Below are positions 11,869 to 59,825 of a DNA stretch of 62,370 nucleotides, piece after piece. The notes under the pieces were generated by a model. The model saw nothing but the letters and a program-made list of their open reading frames with translations, ran no database searches and was not told the DNA's origin. Within the stretch, counting starts at the first letter, position 1. Every line of letters starts with the position of its first letter. Source of the DNA: Deltaproteobacteria bacterium. Its GTDB lineage: Bacteria > Myxococcota_A > Polyangia > JAAYKL01. A program made the translations under genes and the position numbers. The stretch covers positions 1 through 62,370 of the forward strand of contig JAUXHN010000001.1 in NCBI GenBank assembly GCA_030621515.1, in the 5' to 3' direction.

Positions 11869-11885
11869 TTTCACAGCTCTTATCC

Positions 11886-24563: not shown

Positions 24564-24632
24564 CTGCAAAGCCGAAGTATAATGCTTTGCCGACAATTTG
24601 GCATTAACCATGACTACTTTAAAGGAAATGAT

Positions 24633-30438: not shown

Positions 30439-31527
30439 GTGAACCCGAACGCACAAATCCAGCCGATGAAGTACCGTCCTCTGGACAGCTTTTCGCTTTT
30501 CGATCTCGAGATGGCTCGCCTTGTTCTGCGGGGTGGAAGCATACTCGATTGGGTCAAGTTGAGCCTCACGGGCGACGAGATACGGGAACTGATCAGGTCG
30601 CATCGCCTCGATCTGGATAATCCGGAGGATCTGGCCCTGGTCGAACGGATTCGCGACGAAGCCATCATTTATCTCAAGCGGGAGTTCGATTTCCCCATTC
30701 CCAAACCGCTGCGAATCGCGTCACTTCCCGACCTGCTGGAGATAGCAAGTGATCTATCCAACCGCCATCGACAGCTCGGTGCCTGCACGCTCCTCAAGGC
30801 AATGCACGTGATCAATCACTTCGACGCGAGCGAAGCCAGACAAGCCCTGGAGATGACCGACCAGTCGCTCTTCTTTTATGCGGAGGAACTGATCTACAAG
30901 ACCGTCAGCAAGATGATGGCCGAACAGCTCCCGGTGGTAGAGTTCATGGGAGGGCGCAAGCAGCGATCGAGCATGGTGACCAAACTTCTCTCCAAGGCAG
31001 ACCCTCTCTCGGCACAGCTCTTCGACAAGATGAGGTTCCGGGTGGTGACCGCCACCAAGGACGACGTCCTCCCTACCATCGCTTTCCTATGCAGGAACCT
31101 GTTCCCCTTCAACTATGTGCTGGCGAAAGAATCGACCAATACCCTCCTGCCATTCGGGACGTACTGCAGAAAAAACGACCATCTGTCGGACCTGATGGAC
31201 CGTTCACAAATGAATCCCCAAATCGAGAACTCTCTCCAACCCATGTCCAACACCCACTCGTCACCCAGTTACAAGGTGGTCCACTGGGTCGCGGACATGC
31301 CTCTTCGGATCCCTGACTACCGCAACGCGTACAACACCGACGGCATCAACCCGATCCCTCGCCCGGTAATCTACGTCCGGGCCGAGGTGCAAATCCTCGA
31401 TCGCCGCACCCACAGGGCTAACGAACGCGGGCACGCTTCACACCGGCGCTACAAGGAAAGACAATCCGATTTCGTGCTCGATCGATTGAGGATAGGAACG
31501 CGCGGCAAGCAACCACCTCGGCCGTAA
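30439..31527 (+). CDS. Hypothetical protein with RelA/SpoT-like nucleotidyltransferase core
   Basis: 'GGRKQRSSMVTKLLSKADPLSAQLFDKMRFRVVTATKDDVLPTIAFLCRNLF' resembles the RxKxxxS...D-x-G/R-x-R-ivv core of RelA/SpoT synthetase domains. Start is GTG 30439 or ATG 30466. Confidence 0.55.
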   Translation: MNPNAQIQPMKYRPLDSFSLFDLEMARLVLRGGSILDWVKLSLTGDEIRELIRSHRLDLDNPEDLALVERIRDEAIIYLKREFDFPIPKPLRIASLPDLLEIASDLSNRHRQLGACTLLKAMHVINHFDASEARQALEMTDQSLFFYAEELIYKTVSKMMAEQLPVVEFMGGRKQRSSMVTKLLSKADPLSAQLFDKMRFRVVTATKDDVLPTIAFLCRNLFPFNYVLAKESTNTLLPFGTYCRKNDHLSDLMDRSQMNPQIENSLQPMSNTHSSPSYKVVHWVADMPLRIPDYRNAYNTDGINPIPRPVIYVRAEVQILDRRTHRANERGHASHRRYKERQSDFVLDRLRIGTRGKQPPRP

Positions 31528-43171: not shown

Positions 43172-44422
43172 TTATTGGTTCATGGACTCGAGGAACTCCT
43201 GGTTTGACTCGGTCCGCCTGAGCTTATCCAGCAGAAACTCCATGGAGTCAATAACATTCAATGGATGCAGAAGCTGCCGGAGCAACCATACGCGTTGAAG
43301 TACGAAATCCTCGAGAAGAAGCTCTTCCTTCCTGGTGGCGGAGCGGTTGATGTCCAGGCACGGGAAAATCCTCTTCTCCATGAGCTTGCGATCCAGGTGT
43401 ATCTCGCTGTTGCCGGTTCCCTTGAACTCCTCGAAGATCACCTCGTCCATGCGTGAGCCCGTATCCACGAGCGCCGTCGCGATAATGGTCAGGCTACCCC
43501 CACCCTCGATGTTGCGGGCGGCGCCGAAGAACCTCTTGGGCTTGTGAAGGGCGTTGGAGTCGACACCACCCGAGAGGATCTTGCCGGAGGGTGGAACTAC
43601 AGTGTTATAGGCGCGAGCGAGACGCGTGATGGAATCGAGCAGGATGATCACGTCATGGTTGTGCTCGACAAGGCGCTTGGCCTTCTCGATGACCATCTCC
43701 GCAACCTGCACGTGGCGCTGGGCCGGTTCGTCAAACGTGGAGCTGATGACCTCTCCGTCTACGCTCCGGGCCATGTCTGTCACTTCCTCGGGGCGCTCGT
43801 CGATGAGCAGCACGTGGAGTTTGGCCTCGGGGTGGTTTACAGCAACGGCGTTGGCGATATCCTGGAGAAGCACCGTCTTGCCTGCCCGGGGCGGGGAAAC
43901 GATGATGCAACGCTGGCCTTTCCCTATGGGACAGAGAAGATCGATGATCCTGGTGGAGTCGTTTTGGTTTGCCGGCGTCTCGAGGTTGTACTTCTCGTCA
44001 GGATAAAGAGGCGTGAGGTTATCGAACAGAATCTTGGTCCTGGCTACCTCTGGCGGGGCGTGGTTGATGGTCTCCACCTTGAGCAGGGCGAAGTACCTCT
44101 CGGACTCCTTGGGCGGCCTGATGTTGCCGGACACGATATCGCCAGTGCGCAGGTTGAACCTGCGAATCTGCGAGGGCGAGACGTAAATGTCGTCGGGCCC
44201 CGGAAGGTAGTTGTAATCAGGCGCTCGCAAAAAGCCAAACCCGTCGGGGAGCGTCTCGAGGACCCCCTCGCCGGTGATTGCGCCGTCCTTGTCGGATTGG
44301 GCCTGCAAGAGAGCGAAGATTAACTCCTGCTTGCGCATTCCGGCGGCGCCGTCGATCTTGTAGTCGTCTGCCATTGCGGTCAGCTCGGAGATGGGTTTTT
44401 TCTTGAGATCCCTCAAATGCAT
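43172..44422 (-). CDS. rho: Transcription termination factor Rho
   Basis: '[23 protein letters not shown]'. RNA-binding 'GFGFLR'. Walker A 'SPPRAGKT'. '[25 protein letters not shown]'. Confidence 0.95.
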
Positions 44423-44660
44423 GTCATTTCCCTTTTTGGTTCTTTGTCTAAGAAACTCTTGTGATACCGCTGTCTCGCGGTTTTTTGGAATTGCCTGTAA
44501 GCCGGGGAGACTTGTTTTTCTTCTGTCTTGCTGCTTATCTTGACACTTGTGTTGCGGTGTCGTTCTTTTAAACCTGGAGCGGCAAGAACGATGATTAATT
44601 CTGCGAGTTATTTTAGTCCCGACCCTTTGGTTGTCAAGTATTATCATACGGAGATAGACA

Positions 44661-45155
44661 ATGACCATCGATGCGGCACGAATCGCCATATTGTCCATGC
44701 TGATTGTTTCCCTCACGTGCGCAACGGCGTGCAAGGGTGATAAGAGCGCGGTGGATGCGCCGAAGGACCCTGCCAGATGCAAGCTCCTCGATCTCGGCGA
44801 GGCTACGGATTTCATGTCCTCGGGCAAGCCGGTCCCCGATGATCAGCTCGTCGGCATGGCGGGAATTGCCGACCCCAAGATGCTGGTCTGGCAGGATGCC
44901 AAAACGAAGCGGGTCCATTACGTCACCAAGATCATGGGCGCCGGCGGCAAGCTCCTGTACACCGAACAGGTGCCGGCGGGCGAGAAACCGCGAATTCTCG
45001 CGAATTTCAAAGGGACCATCAGATTGTGGAAGAATATCCCCGGGAAAGACGCTCTTGATATGGCGAAAGCGTTGAAGAAGGAATGGGGGACGGAGATCGA
45101 TATGAACGATACCTACCTGCTCACCGGCGGCGTCAAGCCGGACGGTTGTAAGTAA
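44661..45155 (+). CDS. Hypothetical lipoprotein
   Basis: [32 protein letters not shown] lipobox. Confidence 0.5.
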
Positions 45156-45194
45156 TAGCATTTACACCTTCTTTTAAGGGAGGGTGTGATAAAA

Positions 45195-45276
45195 GGCCCT
45201 GAAAGGGGCCAGGGGTCTATGTCCTTCCCATACCCGGGGCGTTGCCCCGGGCTGGTATGTAACGCCCCTTCGGGGC
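45195..45276. terminator. Three GC hairpins in a convergent intergenic region
   Basis: ggccc-tgaaag-gggcc (45195-45210); cccggggc-gtt-gccccggg (45233-45251, 8 bp); gcccc-ttc-ggggc (45264-45276, 7 nt beyond the giant-gene stop). Confidence 0.4.
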
Positions 45277-45282
45277 CAGGAG

Positions 45283-48200
45283 CTATGTTCCGATCACTAT
45301 TCCGAGTGTCTCGCGAAGCTTGAAGTACTGCTCGGAGATGCTGAACAGGACCAGTTCCTTGATCTTCTCCTTGGCCGGAATCTCCTCCACTCCACCCGTC
45401 TCCGCCTGGATCATCTTTGCGGCCGTCTCCAGATCGTTTGCCAGCAGGAACCCTGCGCGACAAGCGGTTATCTCCACGGTCTTGATCCAGACCTTCAAAT
45501 CCGCCTGTTCACCTGAGTTGATGAACTTTTTGACGATCTTGGACAGATTCTCCGTTTCCATCGGGTTGAGGTTCTGACGAAGCGCCTGAACGTACTGGGC
45601 CAGAGATCCAGACTTGTCCTTGGGCAATTTGAAGTCCGGCTGGCCGATCTTCATGGCCGCGAGCAGGAGGTTCTTGAGCTCACCGCGGGTCGGGAGGACC
45701 CAGCGAATGTAATGCTCAGGCCGGTAGTAAGCCAGATGCTTTGTGACCATGAACAACAGATCCTGCGGCGAGTACCCGGACAGCAGGCTCGCCCCACAAG
45801 CCGACGCCATGGGATCCGTAACCGCGAAGTTGAGCCCGCCCGGCTTGTCGTCCTGGATATACAGGTCCGGCACTACCGGGATGTTCATGACCTGGGCCGC
45901 GTAGAAGAAGGTCTTCGAGAAAGTCAGGGTATCATTTACCGGTCGCTTCTGGTTCTTCTTGAGCCCAAACGCCTTGATGGGCTGAACCTTTATAGTGCGC
46001 ACCGACCTGGTGACCAATTCGAAGATCTTGCCGATGTAAACGGATTCTTCCTTGTGGAATAAATCCTTGATCCATCGCTCGTTGTCGAGCCTCGCCTGGG
46101 CCCTGACACTGCCCCTTGTGCGATACTGCTCGAAGAACTGCTGCTCCTCGGTGTCGGCCTTCTTGAGGAAGGCCAGGGTTGAGCACAGGCACCAGGCCTT
46201 GTCGTACTGGCGATGATCGAAATAGAGCTTCCGAAGCGCCTTGTAGGAATCGACCCGGTAGGGGTTTTTGTTGATCAGGGCCTGGTGCTCGGCAATGGCG
46301 TCGTCGAGCTTGTCGGGCATTTTCATGTAGAGCTCGGCCAGGATCTCGTGTCGCATCATGTTGTCCGGATCAAGGCCGGCCGCCATCTTGAACGCCTCGG
46401 CCGCCGCCTCCAATTGCCCCATCCTTGTACGGTAGATCTCACCGAGGAAGTGCCATAGGTTGATCTCGAGTTCCTGCTTGTCACCTCCGCCAACGCGATG
46501 GAGCATCTTGCGGTAGTTGCGCTCCAGGTTCTTCCAGTCCTTTTTCTGGGTGAGTATTCTGTCGATGGCCTCGAAGGCCTTCAGGTTCTCCAGACTCGCG
46601 TCCAGCGATCTGTTAAAGAAATCCACCGCGTCCTCGGCGCTCTTGATCTCGTCGCGGTAGATGACCGCCATGGAATAGAAGAGCCGACCGAGCTTGATAT
46701 CATCCTGCTCCATATCCGTGACCTTCAGGATGATCTCCACGACCTTCTGCCACTGCTTGGTGGTCTGGTAGAGTGGAAGCATCTTGTGAAGCACCGGCCT
46801 GTTTTCCGGTTTCAACTCCGAGGCCTCGGCATACGAAGAGATAGCCTTCTGTGGATTCTTCAACCTCTCCTGCCAGATATCGCCAATGTCCACCATGAGA
46901 TCGAATTTGTGGTCGTCGCTCTGCACCGCATCGATGAGTATCTTCTTGAAATGAATCACCTGCTCGAAGTTCTTCTGCTCCGCGTGTAGGCCGATAACCT
47001 CCTCGAGCGTGGGCTCATGAGATGGATCGATCTCGAGCGCCTTGTCGAACATGTTGAGCGCCTTGCGGCGTTCTTTTATCTGCGCCTTGATGTGTCCAAG
47101 CCTGTAGAAGATATTGACGATCTCTTCCTTGCCCTGGTCGTCCCTGTGATGGACGAGCACCATCTGGTAGAGCTTGAACGTCTTGTCCCAATCCTCCATC
47201 CGATAAAGAATATCAGCCAGCCCGAGCAAGGTTGGCAGGTGCGATGTATCCATGTCGTAGGCTGACTGGTAGGCCTTGAGGGACTTCTCCAGGTTGCCTC
47301 TCCGGTCCGCCACCATTCCGAGCCTGCGCTGGAGCGGTTGCATCTCGGATGATTCGCGCTTGCCGCCCAACCTTACCAACATATCCAGCATCAACTCCGC
47401 GTCTTCCCATCTCTCCTGTTTGATGTAGACATCCACCAGAGGCTCCGCCGCCTCCTGGTTATCCGGATCGGATTGCAGTGATCGCTCGAACCATTCGATG
47501 CCCGCGTCCTCTTCGCCCAGCTTGTTCCGGGTAAGATCTCCCAGTATGAACTGGAGCTTGGACTTGGCGCGATCGTTCTCGGTAAATTCCTGTTCGGCCT
47601 CCAGCACTCTGGCCGCCGCGAGCCACTCTCCATCGTCGATATGGATATTCCTCAGGGACTCGAGACACGGCAGGTGGCCGGAGTCGATATCCAGCGCCGA
47701 TCTGAAATGCTCGACGGCGCTTACGCGATCCATGAGGTTTTCCGCGTTCAACTTGCCGAGGCGGTAATACAGATCCACTTTCCGATCCGGCTCCACGACC
47801 GTCTGGGCCAGCCGATGCAAGGTATCGTGAGCCGCAGACCAATCTTCGGTCAAGGTCTGCAGTTTAGCCAGCTCGTCGAGCGCGGACTCGTGCTCCGGCT
47901 CGATATCCAGGATCTCCTTGTAGGCGTCCATCGCGTGATCCATATCCTCCAGCTCGGAGAAATAGGTCTTGCCGATGACCTCGTAGAGAACCACGCGCGC
48001 TTCCCTGTCGTGAATGGTTTCCACGTGCCGTTCGAGTGTTCCTATCAGATCCTGCCAGCGACCCGTCTGCCTGTACAGGCGTTCGAGAGCCTGCAATGCG
48101 CTCTCATGGCTCGGATCGATATCGAGAATCTCTTCCAGACGCTCGACGGCCTTATCCAGGTTCACGAACTCCTCTTCGAGCATCGCTGCAATTCGAGTGA

Positions 48201-51200
48201 GCAGATCTATGCGTTCGCGTTCGCTGCCTGCATATTCCAGCTGCAACTCCAGTATATCGAGCAGGTCCGGCCAGGATTCGATCTTGGAGAACAACCGCTC
48301 CAATCCCTTGAGTGAAGGCAGGTTGCTCTGATCGATCTCCAGGCTCTTGCGATATTCCTCGATGGCCGCGTTGGTATCGTTGAGGTTGTCCTCCTGGATC
48401 TCGGCGACCCGCAGATGAGTTGCCACGATGGCTTCAGGATCCTCCAGCACATCTATCTTGCGCCTCAGGATCGGTATGAGCTCCCGCCAGTTCCTGGCGG
48501 CCCCGAAAATCCTCTCCAACGCGATAAGCGCCGGCTCCAGGCTCGGGTCGATATCCAGCGCCTTCTTGTAGGCTTGCCTGGCCTCCGGCAAATCATCCAG
48601 GTATTCCTCGAAGATCTGACCCAACTCAACGAGTATGCCCTTCTTGCCCTCGTCATCCTGCTCGGATTCGATGGCTCGTTTCAGAACCTCCACCAGCTCC
48701 GCCCACTGTTTGGTCCCACGATAGAGCTCTCCCATGAGCTTCAGCGCCGCAACGTTGTCCGACTCGAGCTGCAGCACCTGCTGGTAATATGCTATCGCGT
48801 ACTCTGGATGACCCAACTCGTCTGCGTACCACTTGCCGATCTTGAGACACAGGTTGATCTGGGTGGGCTTGTCGTCCATGGACTGAAGCACCTGGTTGCA
48901 CGACGCGAGCAGATCGTTCCACTTGTCCGTAACCGAAGCCAGCCGCTCCAGGTGTTTTGCCGTCTCGTCATTGGAATAGTCGGTTGTGAAAGCGCGCTGC
49001 ATGACCTCGAAAGCGTTTTCAGTCTGGTCCAACTTGTCTTCATAAATAGCGGCCGCCTTGTGAAGTAACACCACCTCGTCCGCCGGCTCCGCCACGTAAT
49101 TGAGACGGGTGGAGTACATCTTGATGAGCTCCTCCCAGGTCTCCTCCTCGGTCATTATTTCGACCATGCGGTCGAAGGCATGCTCATGCAGCGGCGACAT
49201 CTCCAGGATGCGCGCATACGGCCCCTTGGCCCGCAGCGGCTCGACAAGCTTCTCCTCGATGGCGAGCGCCTGTCCGAGCCAGGTACCCACCTGCTCGTCT
49301 CCCTCGAGCAACCCGCCCTTTCGCCCGAGCACTTCTACGTACTCCTCCCACATGGCCTGCTCTTCGTAGAGCTTTTCCAACGCAATTGTGGGATTGATGT
49401 CCACCGGATCCACATCGGCGGCCTTTACCCATGCGTCGATGGCGTCCATGGGTCGCTCGAGCGTATCCGAAAAGATAGTCCCCATCTTGGAGTAATATTC
49501 TTTAATCTGCTCTGCCTCGAACTGGGCAGCGCCAGCCTCTATCACTCTATCGAGGATCTCGATGAGATCCTCCCACTCCTGGTTGGCCTCGTGGATCTTC
49601 GCGATGGCCTGCAAGGCGCTGATGTTGTCCGGATCGATGCTCAAAACATTCTGCCAGTTGTCTATGGCGTTGTGATCTCTCTCAAGACACTCACCCCACA
49701 CCAGACCAAGTTGGCTGTATAGTTTGACCCGGGTCTCGTCTTCATCGGCGATGGTGACCGCGCGTTCCAGCACGTCGACCAGTTCACTCCAGTTTTCCTC
49801 CCTCGAGTAAAGGTCGGCCAGAGCTCCGAGGGCCATGCCGTCCTCACCGAGGATATCGAGCACATTGCTCCACAGCTCCACCGACTTTGCGATGTTACCA
49901 AGACAATCGGAGGAGATGGTGGCCATCTTGGCAAAGAGATCGGCCTGGGCGGCTTCACTCTCGACCGCGTCCTTCATCTTCTCATATATGGTGTACAGTT
50001 CCGCCCATGCCTCCCTGTCGGCATAGATCATCTCCAGGTGATCGAGGGACTCCCTGTGTCCCGGGTCCAGATTGTCGATAATGCGATGGTAGGCGACCCT
50101 GGCCTTCTCGAACTCGTCAAGCTGTGACTCGTACACATTGCCCATCCGATGAATGTATGCAACCTGCTCTTCCTCTGAAGACACAGTATTGGCGAGCATT
50201 TCCAGGATATCGACCAGGCGTTCCCACTCCATGTACTGGGTGTAGATCCGATCGAGTGCGGAGAGGACCTCCCTGTCGTCTCCGCCCAGCTGCAGGCATC
50301 CGCGGTAGGCCTGCTCTGCCCTGGCGGCGTCGTGAAGCTCCTCCTCGGCGACCCGCGCGAGCTTCTTGGCCACGAAACGCTTGACCTGAACGTCTTCCTT
50401 CTTGGTGAACAGATCCTGGTAGAGATCCGCGAGTTCTGTCCAGGCGTCGGAGCTTCCCGCGAGCCTCTCCACCTCTTCGCCGGAATGCTCGTTGAACGGA
50501 TCCTCTGAACAGGCACGACAGTACCAGTTGAAGGCTTCGACACCATCCAGCAGACGCTCCTCGTACAGCTCGGCAATGCGGTGCATCAAGGATACGCGTT
50601 CCTCCACCTCCTCTATGTCCTCGAGTTGTTGCCCGTGCAGATTGACCAGTTTCTCCCACTCCGCATTCATGCGGCACAGGGGCTCCAGAATTTCCGCTAT
50701 CTCTCCCCTCCTCTCACCCTCTGCGAACAGAAGTTCCAGCGCGGCTACGGACTGATCATGGGCCGGCTCGGCCGCCAGGATATCCCTGTAGGTTTCAACC
50801 GCCTTCTCGACGTTCTCCAGGTCCTGCTGGTAGAGTCGACCCAACCGGAACTGCACACCGAGGCTCTCCTCGGGATCCTCCATGATAAGCGCTTCCTTCT
50901 GAAGCGTGGAAGCGAGATCCTCCCAGCGTTCGGCTATCTGGAACAGCTTGTCCAGGCGGAGGATCGCCTCGCGGTTCTCCACATCGAACTCGAGAACCTT
51001 CTGGAACCTGATAATGGCGTCATCCGGACGGTCCAGTTTATCCTCGTAAATCGCGGCAACCCTGGACCCGATCGTCACGGCGTTCTCGGCCTCGACAACA
51101 TCCACGAGCTGCTGATCGAACAGGTTCGCCAGATCCTCCCACCTTCCGGTCTGGTCGGCGATATCATCCAACCTCTCGAGCGTCTTCTCGTTGACATTAT

Positions 51201-54200
51201 CCACCGCCAGCGCCCTCGCGTAGATGTCAAAAGCCTCGTTGGGAACGTCCAGGTGTAGATCGCTCTCCAGGAACTCCGCTATCTGGTGGAGGATCTCCAC
51301 CCTCTGCCAGTTATCCTCCGTGACCATGAGCTTGACCTCGAGCACACCGATAAGCTTTCGCCACTCGGCCAGATCCTGGTAGATGGGCTCGAGCACCTCG
51401 ACTGCGAGCAACTGCTCATCCTCGCCTGCCACCAGTTCCTCGAGTATGGTTATCGATGGCTCGTGCTGCGGCGAGATCGTCAAAATATCCTTGATATACT
51501 CCACGGCTCGCGGGATATCCTCCAGGTGTTGGACATAAAGCTCACCGATACGATACTTGTACGAAATAGCCTCGTCCGGATCCCCCGTGAGTTCCACCTC
51601 GCGCTCCAGAACAGACAGCAGGTCGTGCCACTCCTCGGTTTCCGTGAACAGAACGTCGAGCCTCTGTATTGCCTGGAAATCATCCGGGTCGAACTCGATT
51701 ATCCTCTGATAGGTTTCGATGGCCTTCCGAATGTCGCTCATCTCGCCCTCGTACATGGCGCCGAGGATGTACAACACTTCCTTCTTCTCCTCGGGAGTCG
51801 AGACAAGATCCACCTTGCGATTGTAAATCCCCTGAAGATCGTCCCAGCGCTCCAACCTCAAGTAGAGGCCCTCGAGCTGCGCGATGGCGTTTAGATCATC
51901 CTCGTCGATATCGAGGATCCGCATGTAGACGCTGATGGCCTGATCCGTGTTTTCGATAATCTCTTCATAGATCTGGCTGGCCTTGAACAGTAACCCCTTC
52001 TGCTCCTCGAGATCGGTGACCATCTCTACTTTTTTGAGATAGATGTTCGCCAACTCGGGATAGTTCTCGGTTACCTGGTAAGCACCCTCGAGCGACGTGG
52101 CCGCTTCGATGTGCATCGGATCAATGGCGAGCACCTCCCTATAGTGCTCGATCGCCTTGTCCACATTTTGCAGTTGCTCCTCGCAGATGACGGCGATCTT
52201 CAGGTGGTAGTCGGCAGCCAGGTCCATGTTGTCCATGCCTTCGATCGTGGACGCGTAAATGACGACCAGATCGTCATACAACACCAGCACGCGCGCCAAT
52301 CGATCGAGTTCTTCTCTTGTTCGCTCCTCGGACGGATCCTGCGCCAGGGCCCGGCCCAGAGTCTTGAACGCCTTCTCCGGCTCGTCGCCGGCTGTCTCGT
52401 ATAGCCCCGCTATCTCGTGCAGGAGATCGACCTTCCGGGCGATGGTCTCCTCCTCAGCGATCATTATCTCAAAAACCCCTATGAGTTTCTCCCACACTCC
52501 GAGAGTGCGATAGATCGGCTCGAGAATCTCGGCGACCTCTTTGCGGAACTCCTGCACCTCTATGATTCGCTCGAGGGCATCGATCGCCGGCTGGTTCTGC
52601 GGATCCATTTCGATGATCTCGCGGTATATCTCGACAGCCGCATGCAACTCATCGAGCCGTGTTTCCCTGAGTCCAGCCAGGCGAAGCTTGAGATCCACAA
52701 TCCTGTCCGGATCTCCCTCGAGGCCGAGCTGTTGCTGAAGGTTGTCCGCCAGGTCGGTCCATTTTTCCAGTTGAACGTAGAGCTTGTCCAGATCCTGCAG
52801 CGCGTTCGAGTTGGACGGGTCGATGTTGAGGATCTCCTTGAGACAACCCACCGCATCCTCGGGCCGCTCGAGCATCTCCTCGAAGATCATCGACATGTGA
52901 CGAAAGATCTGTTCCTTCTCAGTCGCGTCCACGGTCGCCTCGACCTTGCTCCTGAGCACCTCTATCAGCTCGGGCCATTTCTCCGTCCTCGAATAGATCT
53001 GCTCGAGGGCTGCGATGGCCTCGGCATTTTGCTGATCCAGATTCAGGGCGGCGTTGTACGCGGCGATCGCATTGTCGACGTTCTCGAGCTGGGTGTCGTG
53101 AATCCTGGCAGCCCTCAGCCACAGGTCTTTCCCGACTTCAGGATCTTCTGCATTTTGCCCGCCTTCTTCGAGAAGAACTACGAGATCGTTCCAGGAATCG
53201 AGGATCGCGGTGATCTCCTCCATCTGTTCCAGCGCTTCTTTCTGCTCCGGGTTGATCTTGAATGCGCGACTGTACGCCACAAAGGAGCGCTCCGGAGAGC
53301 CTATACGCTGGGAGAAGATCGTTCCCTTCTTCATGAGATAATCGATCTTTTCAAAATCATCATCCGAATGTTGAAACAGAATTTCTATCGATTTGATCAA
53401 ATCCTCCCAATCCTCTGCCTCCTCGTACAACGGAGAAAGGACCGAGGCAGCTTCCGCCTGCTGCGACTCGTCCTCGAGTAGACCCTCGAGGGCGGCTATC
53501 GACATCTCATGATCGATTTTGACGGCCAGAACTTCCCTGTAGCAATTGAGCGCCCGAGCCTTGTCACCGAGATGCACTTCGAGAACCTGTCCCAGGCGGA
53601 ACTTGAGATCCAGCTCGTCGTCTTCCCCCATGACGCCCTGTTCCAGCTCCCGATCTATGATCCCGGACAGATCCTCCCAGCGTTCCTCTTTTGTGAAAAG
53701 ACGATCCAGGGCAGCGAGAACCTTGGGCTCGTCGCCGGCCATCTCTATTATCTTGTTGTAAACATTTATGGCCTTGTCCGAATCACCTATTTCCTCTTCC
53801 CACAGAAGCGCCTGGTTGTAGAAAATCTCTTTCTTCTCTTCATCGTCCTCCGCCATCTCTATGCGCTTGGCATATATTTCAAGAAGCTCCTCGTACCTGC
53901 CCATCTGGGCGAAAATCTTCTCGAGAGCCCAGACGGCGCGTGGGTTCTTGGGATCCTCCAGAAGGATGGAGTCGTAATGACTGAGGGCATCCTCCGGTCT
54001 TCCGACCTCCTCGTTCAGAACTCGAGCAAGCCTGAGGCGCATCTCGAACTTATCGCTGTCTTCAACGCTGATAAAAGCCTTCCCGTACGCCTCGACGACC
54101 TCTTCCCAACGGCCGGCCTTCCCGGCGGATCTCTCCAGATCATCCTGGGTTATAGAATCCGCGGGCATCTGCTCGAAGGCTTTGAGGAAGCCCTCGAAGG

Positions 54201-56808
54201 CTCGATCCGCATCTCCGATCTCCTCCTCGGCGATCCTCGCGACCCGCTGACGCATCGCAAGCTTCTCGCCGTCGTCTTCCATGTGCTCGAGGGTGACTTC
54301 CAGGACATTGGCCAGTTTGACCGGCTCCTTGCCGCTTTCCTCGAAGATGGGAATCAACTCCTGGGCCGCCTCCAGGTTCTTTCCGTCGAGATCGAGCACG
54401 GCCTCGTAGCATTTTGACGCCCGATCGATGCGTTCCTTCTTGTCTCTCCACAACTGAGCGATCTTGAACTGAAGACCGATCTTGTCTTCAACCTCCGCAC
54501 CCTTCTTGTCCGCCTCTCTCTCCAGCACGCGGATGAACTCGTCCCACTTGCCCGTGGAGCCGTAGAACTCCTCGAGTTCGTCCCACGCGCGCATCGCCAG
54601 GTAGCGTTTCTTGAGCTGTTCCTGCGCACGCCTGTCGTCCGGGTTGATCTCGATGAGCGACTTCCAGGCCTCCACTGCACGAGCGTCATCGCCTATCTTG
54701 TCGCCAAAAACCACTCCGAGCTTCTGGTAGATCGCGGCCTGCTCCGAGGTGTCGACAGCGATCTGCGCCTGCTTGCCGAGAACTCCGGTCAGCTTTTCCC
54801 ATTCCTTGGCGCGCTCGTACAGGCTCGCCAGATCTCCGAAAGCCTCGGCGTTTTCCGGATCTTCATCGAGAACCGCTTCCCACAGCTCGATGCAGATCGC
54901 AGGGCGCTTGAGTCGCTCGGTTGCCATCTTCGCGATGTCCACGAGAGCCTGGGATTTCTCCGGCCCCGGTTCCTGGGCCTCGGCCTCCTTCTTCATGATG
55001 CCGATCAATTTCTCCCAGTCGCGGCGCTTCTCGTACATTTCCTTGAGGAATTCGATGGCCTGTTCGTGATTGGGATCGGCGGCGATCACCTGCTCAAAGG
55101 CCTTGATGGCCTCGGCCTGGTTGGAGAATTTCTGAATGAACAGTTGGGCGACCTTGAGCCAGATACTGACCTTGTCCTCGTCGGTCTTTGCTTGCTCGCC
55201 TTTCACTTTGAGAATTTTCACCAGATCGGGCCAGCGTTCCATCGCCTCGTACTTATCGATGGCGGCGTCCAGGGCCGGCAGGTAACCCGGCTTGACCTTC
55301 AGAACAGCCTGGTACGTGTTGACCACCATCACGTCCTGATTGAGGTGCTCATCGTAGATCTTTGCCAGCGTCATCTGAGCGTTGACGGCGTACGCCTGAT
55401 TTTCCACTCCTCTGCTCTGCCGCTTGAGGAAATCGGCCATGGCCGACCACTTCCCGGTATCGGCATAGAGCAAAAGAAGCGCATCGATGATGTCCGGATG
55501 CCCCGGAGCCTTCGACCACGCATCCTGCCAGGCCTTGATCGCCTTGTCGGCGCTGTCTGCCTCCGCATCTCTCGCGGCCTGCATGGCCTCCTCCAGCTCT
55601 GAAGAAACGGTGCGATCCAGGGTCATCTCTTCCCCCGGTTCGTCTTCGCGCTCCTCATCGGTGTCTTCGCTATCCACCGAGCTGTCTTCCATGTCCTCGA
55701 CCTGGTCCTTGGGGTCCGATCCGGAATCGTTCTGCATCTCGTTCTCCTCGAAGAATCTCCCCGCTGCATCGTTCTCGGGGTCGATACGCCACAGTTCCTG
55801 GTAGTAACGCGCTGCATGTGATGGGTCCGCCAGTACAGTTCCCCACAGCCGCCCCGCCGCCTCGAGCAAATCTACCCGGCCCTCGCCCTGCGTCTGCTCC
55901 ATGCCGGCTTCCACAAGGTCGGCGGCCGCGCTGGTGTCGCCTTCCTCCAAATAGGTATCCAAAAGAAATCCAAGAATCCCCGGTTGGGTCGTGTCGGCGC
56001 GCCAGGCTTGATCGAGAAACGGTACCGCGCGCTGAACATTCCCGTGCCTCAGCAACCACCTCTGCCCGATCCTGGACATGAGACCGGAACGTTCTTGCGC
56101 GGATCTCGACTGCAGGACCTCGGCGTGAAACGCCGCCAGCCCCGCATCTCCCTCCTCCTCCATGAGCACCTGCTCCAGGACAAGGACGGCTCCTCGATGA
56201 TCGGGATCCGCGTGGACCGCACGGCGCAGCAACTCGGCCATCTTGTCGGAGCCGTTGGCTCGATGAAGCATGGCCGCCCTGAAGAACAGCTCGGCGCCGG
56301 CAGGTGTGTCGTCGGCACTATCCGCCAACTCCTGCGCACGAGTCTCCCATTCGTCGCCGGTTTCGAGATCCCGCAGGACATTGACTGCCCAATCGTTGTC
56401 CGGATCTCGTTCGATGATCTTCGCACATGTCTGCTGCAGTTCATCCTTTTTCCAGAAAATCAGGTTGAACTCCGATAAATCCCTGTACAGAGTCACCTGG
56501 CTCGCAGGGTTCTCCTCGATCTCGAGTTCAAGAACCAAAATTTTCTCGAGGGTCGGCAGTCGACCCATCTCCCAGTATATCCGTCGGGCCTCGCGCAACG
56601 CCTCCACCGCGTCGGCCTTGGCCTTGAATGCCTGCTGGTAATGAACGATGGCCTTCGCCTTCTGGAGAAACTTGTCTTCCCAGAGCTTCGCGACGGCCAT
56701 ATGCATCTCGCAGCACTCGGCCGGATCATCGAGACCCTCGATTTGTTCCTCCAGGTGAAGGATATAGTCCGTCCAGTTCTCGAAACCCTGATGTGGTCGC
56801 TTCGTCAT
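45283..56808 (-). CDS. Giant TPR-repeat protein (~3,840 aa) with non-TPR C-terminal domain
   Basis: Single uninterrupted ORF. Start set at ATG 56808 (MTKRPHQGFENW...), 24 nt after the upstream stop. About 45 occurrences of a ~72-76-aa double-hairpin module with signature 'A(I/V)xxYxx(I/V)Lx(I/L)DPx(N/H)xxALxxLExxY...W..L'. Acidic insert near aa 400. The last ~270 aa are non-repetitive. Confidence 0.85.
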   Translation of the reverse strand: MTKRPHQGFENWTDYILHLEEQIEGLDDPAECCEMHMAVAKLWEDKFLQKAKAIVHYQQAFKAKADAVEALREARRIYWEMGRLPTLEKILVLELEIEENPASQVTLYRDLSEFNLIFWKKDELQQTCAKIIERDPDNDWAVNVLRDLETGDEWETRAQELADSADDTPAGAELFFRAAMLHRANGSDKMAELLRRAVHADPDHRGAVLVLEQVLMEEEGDAGLAAFHAEVLQSRSAQERSGLMSRIGQRWLLRHGNVQRAVPFLDQAWRADTTQPGILGFLLDTYLEEGDTSAAADLVEAGMEQTQGEGRVDLLEAAGRLWGTVLADPSHAARYYQELWRIDPENDAAGRFFEENEMQNDSGSDPKDQVEDMEDSSVDSEDTDEEREDEPGEEMTLDRTVSSELEEAMQAARDAEADSADKAIKAWQDAWSKAPGHPDIIDALLLLYADTGKWSAMADFLKRQSRGVENQAYAVNAQMTLAKIYDEHLNQDVMVVNTYQAVLKVKPGYLPALDAAIDKYEAMERWPDLVKILKVKGEQAKTDEDKVSIWLKVAQLFIQKFSNQAEAIKAFEQVIAADPNHEQAIEFLKEMYEKRRDWEKLIGIMKKEAEAQEPGPEKSQALVDIAKMATERLKRPAICIELWEAVLDEDPENAEAFGDLASLYERAKEWEKLTGVLGKQAQIAVDTSEQAAIYQKLGVVFGDKIGDDARAVEAWKSLIEINPDDRRAQEQLKKRYLAMRAWDELEEFYGSTGKWDEFIRVLEREADKKGAEVEDKIGLQFKIAQLWRDKKERIDRASKCYEAVLDLDGKNLEAAQELIPIFEESGKEPVKLANVLEVTLEHMEDDGEKLAMRQRVARIAEEEIGDADRAFEGFLKAFEQMPADSITQDDLERSAGKAGRWEEVVEAYGKAFISVEDSDKFEMRLRLARVLNEEVGRPEDALSHYDSILLEDPKNPRAVWALEKIFAQMGRYEELLEIYAKRIEMAEDDEEKKEIFYNQALLWEEEIGDSDKAINVYNKIIEMAGDEPKVLAALDRLFTKEERWEDLSGIIDRELEQGVMGEDDELDLKFRLGQVLEVHLGDKARALNCYREVLAVKIDHEMSIAALEGLLEDESQQAEAASVLSPLYEEAEDWEDLIKSIEILFQHSDDDFEKIDYLMKKGTIFSQRIGSPERSFVAYSRAFKINPEQKEALEQMEEITAILDSWNDLVVLLEEGGQNAEDPEVGKDLWLRAARIHDTQLENVDNAIAAYNAALNLDQQNAEAIAALEQIYSRTEKWPELIEVLRSKVEATVDATEKEQIFRHMSMIFEEMLERPEDAVGCLKEILNIDPSNSNALQDLDKLYVQLEKWTDLADNLQQQLGLEGDPDRIVDLKLRLAGLRETRLDELHAAVEIYREIIEMDPQNQPAIDALERIIEVQEFRKEVAEILEPIYRTLGVWEKLIGVFEIMIAEEETIARKVDLLHEIAGLYETAGDEPEKAFKTLGRALAQDPSEERTREELDRLARVLVLYDDLVVIYASTIEGMDNMDLAADYHLKIAVICEEQLQNVDKAIEHYREVLAIDPMHIEAATSLEGAYQVTENYPELANIYLKKVEMVTDLEEQKGLLFKASQIYEEIIENTDQAISVYMRILDIDEDDLNAIAQLEGLYLRLERWDDLQGIYNRKVDLVSTPEEKKEVLYILGAMYEGEMSDIRKAIETYQRIIEFDPDDFQAIQRLDVLFTETEEWHDLLSVLEREVELTGDPDEAISYKYRIGELYVQHLEDIPRAVEYIKDILTISPQHEPSITILEELVAGEDEQLLAVEVLEPIYQDLAEWRKLIGVLEVKLMVTEDNWQRVEILHQIAEFLESDLHLDVPNEAFDIYARALAVDNVNEKTLERLDDIADQTGRWEDLANLFDQQLVDVVEAENAVTIGSRVAAIYEDKLDRPDDAIIRFQKVLEFDVENREAILRLDKLFQIAERWEDLASTLQKEALIMEDPEESLGVQFRLGRLYQQDLENVEKAVETYRDILAAEPAHDQSVAALELLFAEGERRGEIAEILEPLCRMNAEWEKLVNLHGQQLEDIEEVEERVSLMHRIAELYEERLLDGVEAFNWYCRACSEDPFNEHSGEEVERLAGSSDAWTELADLYQDLFTKKEDVQVKRFVAKKLARVAEEELHDAARAEQAYRGCLQLGGDDREVLSALDRIYTQYMEWERLVDILEMLANTVSSEEEQVAYIHRMGNVYESQLDEFEKARVAYHRIIDNLDPGHRESLDHLEMIYADREAWAELYTIYEKMKDAVESEAAQADLFAKMATISSDCLGNIAKSVELWSNVLDILGEDGMALGALADLYSREENWSELVDVLERAVTIADEDETRVKLYSQLGLVWGECLERDHNAIDNWQNVLSIDPDNISALQAIAKIHEANQEWEDLIEILDRVIEAGAAQFEAEQIKEYYSKMGTIFSDTLERPMDAIDAWVKAADVDPVDINPTIALEKLYEEQAMWEEYVEVLGRKGGLLEGDEQVGTWLGQALAIEEKLVEPLRAKGPYARILEMSPLHEHAFDRMVEIMTEEETWEELIKMYSTRLNYVAEPADEVVLLHKAAAIYEDKLDQTENAFEVMQRAFTTDYSNDETAKHLERLASVTDKWNDLLASCNQVLQSMDDKPTQINLCLKIGKWYADELGHPEYAIAYYQQVLQLESDNVAALKLMGELYRGTKQWAELVEVLKRAIESEQDDEGKKGILVELGQIFEEYLDDLPEARQAYKKALDIDPSLEPALIALERIFGAARNWRELIPILRRKIDVLEDPEAIVATHLRVAEIQEDNLNDTNAAIEEYRKSLEIDQSNLPSLKGLERLFSKIESWPDLLDILELQLEYAGSERERIDLLTRIAAMLEEEFVNLDKAVERLEEILDIDPSHESALQALERLYRQTGRWQDLIGTLERHVETIHDREARVVLYEVIGKTYFSELEDMDHAMDAYKEILDIEPEHESALDELAKLQTLTEDWSAAHDTLHRLAQTVVEPDRKVDLYYRLGKLNAENLMDRVSAVEHFRSALDIDSGHLPCLESLRNIHIDDGEWLAAARVLEAEQEFTENDRAKSKLQFILGDLTRNKLGEEDAGIEWFERSLQSDPDNQEAAEPLVDVYIKQERWEDAELMLDMLVRLGGKRESSEMQPLQRRLGMVADRRGNLEKSLKAYQSAYDMDTSHLPTLLGLADILYRMEDWDKTFKLYQMVLVHHRDDQGKEEIVNIFYRLGHIKAQIKERRKALNMFDKALEIDPSHEPTLEEVIGLHAEQKNFEQVIHFKKILIDAVQSDDHKFDLMVDIGDIWQERLKNPQKAISSYAEASELKPENRPVLHKMLPLYQTTKQWQKVVEIILKVTDMEQDDIKLGRLFYSMAVIYRDEIKSAEDAVDFFNRSLDASLENLKAFEAIDRILTQKKDWKNLERNYRKMLHRVGGGDKQELEINLWHFLGEIYRTRMGQLEAAAEAFKMAAGLDPDNMMRHEILAELYMKMPDKLDDAIAEHQALINKNPYRVDSYKALRKLYFDHRQYDKAWCLCSTLAFLKKADTEEQQFFEQYRTRGSVRAQARLDNERWIKDLFHKEESVYIGKIFELVTRSVRTIKVQPIKAFGLKKNQKRPVNDTLTFSKTFFYAAQVMNIPVVPDLYIQDDKPGGLNFAVTDPMASACGASLLSGYSPQDLLFMVTKHLAYYRPEHYIRWVLPTRGELKNLLLAAMKIGQPDFKLPKDKSGSLAQYVQALRQNLNPMETENLSKIVKKFINSGEQADLKVWIKTVEITACRAGFLLANDLETAAKMIQAETGGVEEIPAKEKIKELVLFSISEQYFKLRETLGIVIGT

Positions 56809-56831
56809 CTCTTCTAATTGCCTTCCGACCG

Positions 56832-57707
56832 CTACTGCATGGGCGATCCAACCGCTATCTCCGCCAGGCGCGCATTCGCCGCCGAGATATAGTCCATTCG
56901 CGTCTTTTGATTGGCGGTTTCGAGGAACTTCTCGAGCCATATTTTGGCGTTCTCTTTATTTGTGTATGAGTACGACCAGCCGAGGCTGAACATGGCATCT
57001 TCCATATCCGGCTTCATCTCGAGCGCCTGCCTGAACTCCACGACAGCCTTCTCGTACTCCTTTTTTTCGGAAAGGACCGTACCTAGCCTGTGATGCAACA
57101 CCGCCAACTCATCGCCGCGACCTTCGAGAGCCTTGATGCCCTCACGAAGCACCTGCTCCCCCTGCCCGAGGAAACTGTAATCCAGATACAGGGAACCGAG
57201 TTCGCGATAGGCGTCGAAGAATTTCCCGTTGACCTTCAATGAATCGGTGTACTTCTGCAACGCCTCCTCGGGGCGGTCCATCTCCTCGAGAACCCTGCCG
57301 AGGCGGTAGTGCGCCTTGTACAGTTTCGCATCGAGCTCAATGGTGCGCTTCAACTCCGTTTCTGATTGCTCGTACTGCCCCATCCATTGATATACCTCGC
57401 CGAGCTGATAGTGATATATCGCCAATTCGTCGTTGAGTGCGATGGCCTTCTGCAGGTGTCTGGCGGCCTGCTCGAACTCCTTGGTTTCGATATATACAAT
57501 CGCCAAATTGTGGTGCGCCTTCTCGTTTTCCGGATCGAGGCTCACGGCCTTGCTGCAATCCCTGATTGCCTGCGGAAATAGCTTCCTGCGATGGTACTCC
57601 ACACACTTGTTCATCATCTCGACTGAGTGGACGTGCTCGCGACTACATTTCCCACCAGTAAGCAGGGTAGCGAGTGCGCAAACAACCAAAATCAGCTTCT
57701 TACTCAT
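56832..57707 (-). CDS. TPR-repeat lipoprotein
   Basis: AGGAG RBS. MSKKLILVVCALATLLTGGKC lipobox. Canonical TPRs ('AHHNLAIVYIETKEFEQAARHLQKAIALNDE', 'AHYRLGRVLEEMDRPEEALQKY'). Confidence 0.75.
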   Translation of the reverse strand: MSKKLILVVCALATLLTGGKCSREHVHSVEMMNKCVEYHRRKLFPQAIRDCSKAVSLDPENEKAHHNLAIVYIETKEFEQAARHLQKAIALNDELAIYHYQLGEVYQWMGQYEQSETELKRTIELDAKLYKAHYRLGRVLEEMDRPEEALQKYTDSLKVNGKFFDAYRELGSLYLDYSFLGQGEQVLREGIKALEGRGDELAVLHHRLGTVLSEKKEYEKAVVEFRQALEMKPDMEDAMFSLGWSYSYTNKENAKIWLEKFLETANQKTRMDYISAANARLAEIAVGSPMQ

Positions 57708-57851: not shown

Positions 57852-58589
57852 TCATGAGCCCAGCTTCACTAGCTTTCCGCTCTTGTCCTGCTTGTATCCC
57901 CTGGGAAGGATCGCATCCACCTTCTTCTTGTATCCCTGAGTTCCCCATCCCAGATTCACGAACGCCTCGATGACCTGGTTGCGTACCCGGATGCTCTCGT
58001 CTTCGCACATGGTCTCCAGGAGGGGTTCCTTGGACAGCTCGTCTCCATGCTGCGCCAGAGCGATCACCGTCTGGAACCTGACGGTTTCGTCGACGTCCTT
58101 GAGAAAAGGAATCAACGCCTCGACGACTTCTTTGCCCGGAATCTCCGCGAGGGCCATGATGGTCTGGATCTTTCGGTCCGGATTTCTCTCATATTCCGTG
58201 TCGAACTCGCTCAGAACGTCCAGCATCTCCGTCTTGTAATCCTCCGGCGAAATGATGTTCCGCAACACTCGCTGCACCCAGTTGACCGACTCGGCGGATC
58301 GCAGCGCTCTGGAAATATGTTTGATCGCCGGCTGGCCGATCTCGATGAGCGCCTCACTTACCCACTCTTTCTCCTTCTCATCTTCGCTCGAGGGTTCCGC
58401 GTTGACCCCGAACCTGGCCAGCATTCCTCGTATGGCCGTCTCGTCCCCTTCCCTGGCGAAATCAATCACTTCGGCAAGGGCAATCTGGCGGTAGTCCTTG
58501 GGGGTGAACTTGTTGTTGGCTCGCTTGATACGTTTTTCGACCTTCCACAGGCGCCTCTTTTCTTTGGAGAAAAAATCTAAGATACCCAT
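57852..58589 (-). CDS. HEAT/PBS-lyase-like repeat protein
   Basis: Helical repeats 'VVEALIPFLKDVDETVRFQTVIALAQHGD' and 'ETMCEDESIRVRNQVIEAFVNLG'. Starts 9 nt after the upstream stop. Confidence 0.6.
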   Translation of the reverse strand: MGILDFFSKEKRRLWKVEKRIKRANNKFTPKDYRQIALAEVIDFAREGDETAIRGMLARFGVNAEPSSEDEKEKEWVSEALIEIGQPAIKHISRALRSAESVNWVQRVLRNIISPEDYKTEMLDVLSEFDTEYERNPDRKIQTIMALAEIPGKEVVEALIPFLKDVDETVRFQTVIALAQHGDELSKEPLLETMCEDESIRVRNQVIEAFVNLGWGTQGYKKKVDAILPRGYKQDKSGKLVKLGS

Positions 58590-58598
58590 GCTGAAGCC

Positions 58599-59825
58599 CT
58601 ACCCGTTTTCCGAACCGTTTTCTTGCTCTTCATCTTCACCCGTGAGAACGCCGATAAGCTGGTTGATCCTGTAACCCAGGCCGCCTACTTCCGCCGACTT
58701 GACGTCAAATCTGTACTCGAACTCGCCATTGATGACCTTGAGAAGACCTTCCTCAATCTCCACCACCGGCCGAAGGAAGTGTTTCCCGAGCAGCATACCA
58801 ACCACTATAACCAACAGCGACGCGATCCCCATCATGACGAGGACCAGGAACAGGCACGCTCGATGATCCGACGCGTCATCCACCGACCCCATGATCACGT
58901 TTGCAATTCGATCCTTTTTCTCCGAATTCATGGACGGCAAGACCATGGCAAGGTGATTCGCTCCCTCGATGTCGAGCGCGAAGACCTCCGAGGGACGACC
59001 GCTGCCGAGGGCGCCGGCGACCTTGTCGGAAGCTACATTCTTGAGCTGCTGATCGAGGCTCTGGCGTGCCGTGTCGGTCTCAAAAGAAGAGCTGTAAATA
59101 CTGTCCGCCACGAGCACTGCCACATCCAACCCGAGCTTCTCCTTCTTGATCTTTGCGACGCCGTTGGAGACCTCGAATCCGATGACCAGGGCTCCGGCCA
59201 CGTCATCCCCCACCCAGATGGGCGCGGCGGCCATCTCCAGTAGACCGCTGTTCATCAGGGCGCAGTACTTGTCATCCTTTGCGGCTGATTTGCCCAGGGG
59301 TGAGTTGTCGACGGACCACAGTGAGTAGGTGGCTTCCCCGTCCAGGGCTCTCTTTACCACCTTGATGGCGCCTGAGACATTTCTCCCCGCAGGGCATGCG
59401 TTGGGGGTTGTATTTCGGGCGATGACGACCCCGTTGCGATCGGTGATGAAAACCAGCTCCGGTTTCTTGTCTCCCCGCGCTACCCACAGCTCCGCATACA
59501 TCTCGACCGCCAGGACCCCTGCCCTGAACCATTCCTTCCTGATCTTGGATTCAATTTGTGCTTCGGTCTGGCCCTCTTCGGGTGCTATTTCCACAGGCGC
59601 GAACGCCTGGGTGACATCCTTGGTCATCGCCTGCTTGCGAACATCGAAAAGAAGTTCGTAACCACGAAGCGCCTCTGAACGAGCGAACAGGCTGCCGGTT
59701 GTTCGGAGCTGCTCCTCAATGCGCGTTATTGTGTTTTTTTCCATGTTGGAACTCATCACAAAATACGAAACCAGCCCGAAAACAAGGACCACCAAAAGAT
59801 TCGGCAGAATGATTTTTGCTCGCAT
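58599..59825 (-). CDS. Membrane sensor-like protein: periplasmic domain + TM + HAMP, no output domain
   Basis: Start ATG 59825 (MRAKIILPNLLVVLVFGLVSYFV). ~300-aa extracytoplasmic region, second TM (LFLVLVMMGIASLLVIVVGMLLG), HAMP 'FLRPVVEIEEGLLKVINGEFEYRFDVKSAEVGGLGYRINQLIGVL', then ~15 aa to the stop. Confidence 0.65.
   Translation of the reverse strand: MRAKIILPNLLVVLVFGLVSYFVMSSNMEKNTITRIEEQLRTTGSLFARSEALRGYELLFDVRKQAMTKDVTQAFAPVEIAPEEGQTEAQIESKIRKEWFRAGVLAVEMYAELWVARGDKKPELVFITDRNGVVIARNTTPNACPAGRNVSGAIKVVKRALDGEATYSLWSVDNSPLGKSAAKDDKYCALMNSGLLEMAAAPIWVGDDVAGALVIGFEVSNGVAKIKKEKLGLDVAVLVADSIYSSSFETDTARQSLDQQLKNVASDKVAGALGSGRPSEVFALDIEGANHLAMVLPSMNSEKKDRIANVIMGSVDDASDHRACLFLVLVMMGIASLLVIVVGMLLGKHFLRPVVEIEEGLLKVINGEFEYRFDVKSAEVGGLGYRINQLIGVLTGEDEEQENGSENG

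Follow-up and report, generated by a model that had tools for sequence, protein, structure and literature searches.

Gene model and relatives

The window considered here is the whole of a 62,370-nucleotide (nt) stretch (contig JAUXHN010000001.1, assembly GCA_030621515.1) from an uncultured Polyangia-type lineage of the Myxococcota. It carries on its minus strand a gene for a giant tetratricopeptide repeat (TPR) protein. This protein is probably orthologous to GltI (AgmK), a component of the gliding machine of Myxococcus xanthus, or else a very close member of the GltI family. The window protein adds a new member to the known GltI/AgmK family and is not a new kind of protein. This reading rests on the collinearity of the window protein with giant proteins encoded beside glt genes, which share the cluster position of the Sorangium giant, itself a published GltI homologue.

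45283-56808 (minus strand): giant gene, 3,841 amino acids (aa) from the annotated ATG; seen as an open reading frame (ORF), with identity to the product P0242 from Met45

The minus-strand frame is open from 45283 to 56940 (3,885 codons) with no interruption, and the single uninterrupted ORF described in the first-pass annotation, 45283-56808, lies within it. Residue numbers follow the 3,885-aa numbering from the alternative ATG at 56940, in which the annotated start at 56808 is Met45. The annotated start matches the NCBI-called product P0242 (3,841 aa), and the BLASTP alignments of the orthologues P0096 and P0097 begin at Met45. A start at 56940 would overlap the upstream gene, whose stop is at 56832, by 109 nt, and 56808 avoids this overlap. 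For these reasons, the gene is best written 45283-56808.

A long repeat-protein gene in metagenome-assembled sequence raises the question of an assembly artefact, either a collapsed or chimeric repeat array or a pseudogene. However, the DNA of the gene has no tandem repeats, and its internal repeats reach at most 46 nt at 60-75% identity, so that there is no DNA-level repeat by which an assembler could be misled; the modules are diverged at this level, as had been noted earlier by eye. A 94%-identical protein (P0096) was assembled independently in L052 (GCA_004196275.1) and L053 (a Logan assembly), and L001 is a further independent assembly with 98% identity in the C-terminal tail. The orthologous ORF is unbroken in these assemblies, and orthologues from many studies have an equal module count. 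Because the 94%-identical protein and L001 were assembled independently, an artefact is not credible, and its probability is close to nil.

The C-terminal domain of the protein, described below, occurs in 49 loci of species-representative genomes and in 80 metagenome loci. The 49 genome loci all belong to metagenome-assembled genomes (MAGs) of Myxococcota (Polyangia, Haliangium, Kofleriaceae, and 'Deltaproteobacteria'), with a GC content of 38-72%. Wherever the locus is long enough, 2,700 to more than 3,300 open codons precede the domain, and the exceptions are a few long-read MAGs. For genome and metagenome loci of sufficient length taken together, the open stretch almost always exceeds 3,000 codons. 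The relatives are 3,384-4,166 aa long across many independent Myxococcota assemblies, and related cluster members from Polyangiaceae, Myxococcales, and Deltaproteobacteria MAGs carry names such as 'tetratricopeptide repeat protein'. The earlier view of a maintained array that is no product of assembly agrees with the conserved orthologues in these assemblies. In five long-read 'MFD' MAGs (L018, L036, L040, L043, and L049), the frame before the C-terminal domain is broken after 14-928 codons, against more than 3,000 in relatives, which looks like uncorrected long-read indels rather than short genes.

Solenoid architecture

The protein comprises a variable N-terminal region, a conserved solenoid core with five long modules, and a globular C-terminal domain.

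55369-56808 (minus strand): variable N-terminal region, aa 45-524, about six degenerate TPR-like modules; from a 15-sequence alignment
55627-55728 (minus strand): acidic low-complexity insert DSGSDPKDQVEDMEDSSVDSEDTDEEREDEPGEE, aa 405-438; from the translation
46231-55368 (minus strand): conserved solenoid core, aa 525-3570, 41 double-TPR modules; from a hidden Markov model (HMM), alignment, BLASTP, and AlphaFold2
54463-54720 (minus strand): long module, aa 741-826, with the motif W[DE]ELExFY..GKW[DE]E[FL][IV]R[VL]LER; from the HMM and the orthologue motif
53329-53595 (minus strand): long module, aa 1116-1204, with an extra helix and an LEPxY-type motif (VLSPLY here)
52414-52680 (minus strand): long module, aa 1421-1509, AEILEPIY...WEKLIGV; five helices in the AlphaFold2 model
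51277-51549 (minus strand): long module, aa 1798-1888, VEVLEPIY...WRKLIGV
50578-50844 (minus strand): long module, aa 2033-2121, AEILEPLC...WEKLV
45286-46266 (minus strand): C-terminal non-TPR globular domain, aa 3559-3885 (about 330 aa); from AlphaFold2 and profile A1

An HMM built from the giant protein and iterated five times against the same protein gives 53 domain matches, with domain scores of up to 74.6 bits. They amount to 46-47 modules spanning aa 83-3570; the first-pass annotation had estimated about 45 copies. The module consensus is LAKIYEEELGDPEKAIEAYQRALEIDPDNEEALEALERLYEETEEWEDLAEILERELESVEDDEEKV and corresponds to the repeat signature read earlier by eye. The start-to-start spacing is exactly 72 aa in 27 of 45 cases and 71-75 aa in most others, while five modules are longer, at 86-91 aa. 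Fifty residue-shuffled copies of the protein gave four domain matches, the best at 2.6 bits, and a BLOSUM62 autocorrelation has its maximum at a lag of 72 (0.31, against a shuffled maximum of -0.68). Together, these two controls exclude chance as the source of the periodicity. The four peptides quoted earlier as examples of the repeat are present at aa 1605, 1749, 2940, and 3303, and the acidic insert begins at aa 405.

An AlphaFold2 model of five modules (aa 1349-1725), made with 11 orthologous segments added, is all-alpha with a predicted local distance difference test score (pLDDT) of 94.5. Each 72-aa module has four helices, or two hairpins, and the long module has five. The term 'double-TPR module' is accurate because of the four helices in the standard module, and the spacing of about 72-76 aa with two hairpins per module, proposed from the letters of the sequence, holds in the model as in the measured spacings.

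Multiple TPR families of Pfam match the giant protein. The Pfam and NCBIfam searches return generic TPR models only, and no GltI-specific model is among them. The identities MamA, PrsT, and LapB were rejected for the giant protein, as their scores are summed over repeats and do not indicate orthology. The protein is very acidic, with a net charge of -353. It has no signal peptide or transmembrane (TM) segment: the N-terminus is hydrophilic, and the 19-residue Kyte-Doolittle maximum is 1.53, with no window above 1.6. On these sequence features, it is predicted to be cytoplasmic. The suggested cytoplasmic solenoid scaffold is supported by this, by the all-alpha TPR model, and by the module number and register kept across 14 orthologues.

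The register is seen in a MAFFT alignment of 15 sequences, comprising the window protein and 14 relatives. Each module from aa 525 onward has a gap fraction of 0.00-0.05, as far as the C-terminus, and the core modules, of 71-75 aa save the five long ones, match those of the orthologues one to one. Conservation is highest in the last two modules, 46 and 47, with an identity of 0.49-0.53. The N-terminal region (aa 45-524) has a mean identity of 0.10-0.16 and a gap fraction of 0.23-0.53, and the acidic insert lies within its gap-rich part. Since the gaps concentrate there, the length range of the relatives, 3,384-4,166 aa, stems mainly from the N-terminal part. When the window protein is compared by BLASTP with eight giant relatives, from which the near-identical P0096 was excluded, one dominant collinear high-scoring segment pair (HSP) results in each case, 3,349-3,887 aa long at 31-40% identity, and the out-of-register HSPs reach 20-24% identity at most.

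The positions of the five long modules are kept across the orthologues. Four of the five have an extra helix with A-x-[IV]-L-E-P-[IL]-Y-x5-W-x-[KR]-L, and the fifth has a different conserved motif. The LEPxY motif stands at matching alignment positions in the orthologues, in each of which the strict pattern finds 2-4 copies. In module 19, the long module at aa 1421-1509, the L, E, and Y are invariant in a 12-sequence alignment. The four LEPxY modules are candidate docking sites.

C-terminal domain

The globular tail is an addition to the earlier description, which had the TPR array only. A profile (A1) was made from a 22-sequence alignment of this domain, and the AlphaFold2 model from the same alignment has a pLDDT of 92.4 and a predicted TM-score (pTM) of 0.91. 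It shows 16 helices and a three-stranded sheet (domain residues 134-158) followed by a long helix. The domain, which is mostly helical, is common to all giant orthologues. No Pfam or NCBIfam model matches it, and sequence searches of the PDB with it returned nothing except designed TPRs, which match the last hairpin.

Of 1.84 billion sequences that each represent a cluster at 50% identity, A1 matches 4,062 at E <=0.001 and 1,365 at E <=1e-30. Among the matches listed, the domain is nearly always at the extreme C-terminus, the proteins fall into two length classes of about 3,300-4,170 aa and about 1,750-1,830 aa, and the domain scores 300-536 bits.

The three-stranded sheet and the long helix bear a weak resemblance to the part of M48 peptidases (Ste24p/ZMPSTE24, HtpX) in which these enzymes carry HExxH. 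Foldseek against the PDB places Ste24p/ZMPSTE24 at ranks 1-3 (probabilities 0.95, 0.80, and 0.77) and BlaR1 12th; the M48 matches are weak, with E of 0.03-0.4 and a TM-score of about 0.36. An hhalign comparison of the family profile with E. coli HtpX lays the sheet-plus-helix region on the HEISH-bearing segment of HtpX. Its score of 20.3, against 19.7 for the best of 20 unrelated E. coli proteins, is the first of 21 but not significant, being no better than background. The HExxH motif is absent from the domain: the window protein has KHLAYY at the aligned position, and the His varies among the members of the family (alignment A1). None of the 22 members of the alignment has a Pfam M48 match, and no M48 homologues occur among the ORFs of the retrieved loci. 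The domain is thus at most a degenerate, non-catalytic relative of the M48/zincin fold, which is a possible lead and not an established one.

Synteny with glt genes and the TPR lipoprotein partner

Five more distant relatives were sampled for gene order (L050, L054, L058, L059, and L060). In all five, the giant gene directly follows GltD-, GltE-, GltF-, and FHA/GltG-like genes and the gene of a TPR lipoprotein of about 300 aa. The order upstream of the L050 giant (P0209, 4,166 aa) is a long TPR protein (GltD-like), a GltE-like, a GltF-like, and a GltG-like protein, a 307-aa TPR lipoprotein, and the giant. Its 456-aa protein has GltE (NF033758) as the best NCBIfam match, with 172 bits over the full length, its 114-aa protein matches CglF/GltF (NF033764), and its 771-aa FHA protein has GltG (NF033760) as the best match, with 417 bits, and an AgmX/PglI C-terminal domain. 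For L054, L058, L059, and L060, the order was assigned by gene size and Pfam content. These loci have a series of a 1,198-1,307-aa TPR protein, proteins of 483-529 aa and 73-90 aa, a 669-741-aa FHA protein, a 290-300-aa TPR protein, and the giant.

A gene for an exported TPR (lipo)protein of about 290-307 aa stands directly before the giant gene wherever the upstream gene is visible:

Window, 56832-57707 (minus strand): exported TPR protein of about 291 aa, conserved partner; TPR matches, 23 nt upstream of the giant gene
L050, 7773-8696: small TPR gene
L054, 8574-9476: small TPR gene
L058, 8959-9861: small TPR gene
L059, 9099-10001: small TPR gene
L060, 8987-9859: small TPR gene

The small TPR protein of the window has a signal peptide and a non-canonical lipobox (LLTGGKC), and its L050 counterpart has the lipobox LAGC. 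It shares 28-32% identity over about 270 aa with its L050 and L054 counterparts, and the small TPR proteins share 23-26% identity with GltE. Like GltE (AglT), the 291-aa protein is exported and contains TPRs, and its NCBIfam matches include GltE. In contrast, GltE has about 450-490 aa against about 300 aa, and a true GltE-like gene coexists with the small TPR gene in the same clusters. From these sequence comparisons, the small TPR proteins appear to be an orthologous group of their own, distinct from GltE and a constant partner of the giant gene. In Haliangium, the 296-aa TPR protein Hoch_5625 is listed as a GltE homologue, next to homologues of GltG and GltF, in a table that also names Hoch_5627 (767-aa FHA) and Hoch_5628 (84 aa) (PMC3169522 Table S3). 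The Haliangium MAG L016 carries the C-terminal domain.

Comparison with GltI/AgmK

To our knowledge, GltI is the least understood component of the gliding machine, and knowledge of it, all from the M. xanthus protein, consists of its localisation, the phenotype of a mutant, and AlphaFold models.

GltI/AgmK of M. xanthus is a cytosolic TPR protein of 3,822 residues found at focal adhesions; its localisation is dependent on MglA, and it is needed for motility and for the recruitment of AglZ and MglA (PMC4508894). It has a large helical C-terminal domain, an AlphaFold model of about 1,100 Å, and multiple predicted sites for the GltG FHA domain (PMC11761067). The window protein is similar in length (3,841 aa) and, like GltI, consists of TPRs over most of its length. 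GltI is also described as cytosolic, in agreement with the window protein, and the mostly helical window tail of about 330 aa may correspond to its large helical C-terminal domain. The orthologues of the window protein hold the position of gltI after gltD-E-F-G. In M. xanthus, however, gltH precedes gltI and gltJ follows it, whereas the Polyangia-type loci examined have the TPR lipoprotein gene before the giant gene and no gltJ, and the giant gene of the window adjoins no glt gene.

The closest published parallel is Sorangium cellulosum So ce56, in which sce2914-2918 are homologues of GltC/D/E/F/G and, after one unlisted gene, sce2920 (1,774 aa) and sce2921 (2,081 aa) are both homologues of MXAN_4863 (GltI) (PMC3169522 Table S3). 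The cluster order is that of L050, L054, L058, L059, and L060. The giant is annotated as two genes in Sorangium, but the two sum to 3,855 aa, the size of one giant. A frameshift or a sequencing error may have divided a single gene.

The likeness to AgmK/GltI that the first-pass annotation could offer only as a lead is supported, if indirectly, by the collinear alignments with the giants, the glt synteny in five of five loci, the Sorangium gene order, and the published homologues.

Kinase-fused relatives

The C-terminal domain also occurs in proteins of half the size. L055 10001-15319 encodes a 1,772-aa protein (P0250) in which a Ser/Thr protein kinase at the N-terminus is followed by the 72-aa modules and this C-terminal domain, and about 20 further representatives of 1,750-1,830 aa are among the A1 matches listed. 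Window residues 2511-3883 align with residues 397-1768 of P0137 at 31% identity. These proteins of about 1,770 aa share with the giant the 72-aa module type and the C-terminal domain, and differ in size, in the N-terminal kinase, and in a neighbourhood that is unrelated to glt. We know of no characterised Ser/Thr-kinase-TPR protein of this size.

Gene neighbourhood of the giant gene

Upstream of the giant gene and its small TPR partner, two further co-directional genes are present, and downstream the unit is followed by a terminator-like hairpin:

58599-59825 (minus strand): 408-aa membrane protein with a TM helix, an extracytoplasmic domain of about 300 aa, a TM helix, and a HAMP-like end
57852-58589 (minus strand): 245-aa HEAT-repeat protein; gene upstream of the TPR/giant pair and in the same direction
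45195-45214 (minus strand): terminator-like hairpin and T-run, about 70 nt past the stop of the giant gene

The four genes, for the 408-aa, HEAT, TPR, and giant proteins, are separated by gaps of 9, 66, and 23 nt. The 408-aa protein has no output domain and shows weak matches to the HAMP region of sensor kinases. Past the giant gene come the hairpin, a near-consensus promoter-like site at 44610-44637 (minus strand; an 11/12 sigma-70-like match), and then rho, a DUF1385 gene, and prfA. The order of the four genes (408-aa protein, HEAT, 291-aa TPR, and giant) is kept in L052, and relatives with 70-98% tail identity have rho-DUF1385-prfA downstream and the small TPR gene upstream.

No family matches the ORF of 175 aa (44634-45161, minus strand) that separates the giant gene from rho; it holds a terminator-like hairpin and has the promoter-like site at its 3' end. 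By tblastn, it is only 74-78% conserved in relatives whose flanking genes show 85-98% identity. An intergenic or rho-leader region is a likelier reading of this ORF than a gene, and it is not treated as part of the system. The rho ORF (43172-44827, minus strand) has 551 aa from a TTG, with the Rho N-terminal domain from residue 140, and the rho product of L052 has 416 aa; translation of rho probably starts well within this ORF. In the soil Polyangia locus L024, RNase Y (11036-12610) comes directly after the giant gene, in the place that rho has in the clade of the window. The presence of RNA-processing genes (RNase Y, rho) after the giant gene is probably a coincidence.

Weighing of the alternatives

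Several observations weigh against a GltI identity. The link to GltI is made by synteny and by a published homologue table, and MXAN_4863 itself was compared by description. The NCBIfam scores of the L050 GltE, GltF, and GltG matches are under the equivalog cut-offs. The Polyangia arrangement is unlike that of M. xanthus, as the TPR lipoprotein gene stands in the place of gltH and no locus examined has a gltJ-like gene after the giant gene. No GltG/GltJ-type gene lies downstream of the giant in the metagenome relatives, of which the A1 scan retained those at >=45% identity. The whole 62-kb window has no glt, agl, or FHA genes; the 45 kb to one side of the giant gene and the 5.4 kb to its other side are free of glt, agl, and mgl genes, and so are the 10 kb upstream of it in the 94%-identical relative L052. 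In addition, the architecture of modules plus C-terminal domain is not exclusive to gliding, given the kinase-fused proteins. Homologue searches with the C-terminal domain, the N-terminal region, and A1 returned fragments of up to about 700 aa and no Myxococcus names, and the giants, including the window's own product, were absent from the output. As to the first of these gaps in linkage, M. xanthus splits its system over the G1, G2, and M1 clusters (PMC3169522), so that linkage to glt is not obligatory.

A generic, lineage-specific TPR protein, with a likeness to GltI in size and repeat type but no common ancestry or function, would account for the generic Pfam and NCBIfam matches without a GltI-specific model and for the lack of glt genes in the window. 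It would not be expected to give collinear alignments of about 3,400-3,500 aa with module-specific identity, a nearly indel-free module count, or a shared non-TPR C-terminal domain at 300-536 bits among the matches listed. The gltDEFG synteny in all five sampled orthologues and the published Sorangium homologues also speak against it, and this explanation is largely refuted and highly improbable. A different proposal accepts the family and questions the function. In the clade of the window, the protein would have been repurposed, and the TPR-lipoprotein/giant pair would serve the HAMP and HEAT proteins as a non-gliding scaffold for the envelope or for signalling. The four closely spaced co-directional genes (9, 66, and 23 nt) with the terminator-like hairpin after the giant gene would fit such a unit, as would the same gene order in the 94%-identical L052, the rho-DUF1385-prfA context without glt genes in closer relatives (70-98% tail identity), and the kinase-fused family members in non-glt contexts. 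Yet the protein has its 41 core modules, its five long modules, and its C-terminal domain in common with the glt-linked orthologues, and this conservation points to identical partners; in Myxococcota it is normal for glt clusters to be unlinked, as the three M. xanthus loci show (PMC3169522); and the conservation of the HAMP and HEAT genes was checked in one very close relative only. Repurposing is thus regarded as unlikely, and membership of the GltI family with a GltI-like role is preferred.

Proposed role and significance

By analogy with M. xanthus, the giant protein would act as GltI does, as a long cytoplasmic rod in the Agl-Glt focal-adhesion gliding machinery. The solenoid would be about 0.1 micrometre long if it resembles the GltI AlphaFold model of about 1,100 Å. 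The position-specific modules could serve as fixed docking sites for the cytoplasmic domains of membrane components, with the four LEPxY modules as candidates and the GltG FHA domain as the best candidate partner. The rod might in this way gather several motor or transducer units into one adhesion complex, and the C-terminal domain would serve as a further docking or anchoring module. In the clade of the window, the TPR-lipoprotein/giant pair has moved from the glt genes to a place beside rho, behind the HAMP and HEAT genes, so that any glt partner genes have to lie elsewhere in the genome.

That indels are nearly absent suggests that both the length of the protein and the spacing of its sites are important, in line with the earlier idea of a 'ruler'. 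A bolder and doubtful extension is that GltI-family proteins are rulers of fixed length, in which 41 modules space a few docking sites (the LEPxY modules, the other long module, and the tail as a degenerate M48-like pseudo-protease) and set the stoichiometry and spacing of the motors. Here, the ruler would be uncoupled from gltDEFG and placed under a HAMP sensor and a HEAT protein, and thus be responsive to a signal. If this is true, the stoichiometry and spacing of motor units in the focal adhesion would be set by the rod.

The window adds an intact GltI-family orthologue from an uncultured Polyangia-type lineage, unusually placed beside rho. It offers several testable points: the near-invariant 41-module core with five fixed long modules, the C-terminal family without a Pfam or NCBIfam model, the constant TPR lipoprotein partner of about 300 aa, and the kinase-fused half-size relatives. 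These comparative points aid annotation and the design of binding-site experiments; they are incremental and leave the picture of such proteins unchanged.

Other genes of the window

The other genes of the window are housekeeping genes, including lon, lepB, miaB, atpB, pgk, and a gene for an S8-type protease. A subtilisin-type protease of 1,296 aa is encoded at 21186-25076 (minus strand), and part of this protein resembles regions of sortase-dependent M36 peptidases. A TIGR04552-family protein is encoded at 30439-31527 (plus strand), adjoining lon and lepB.

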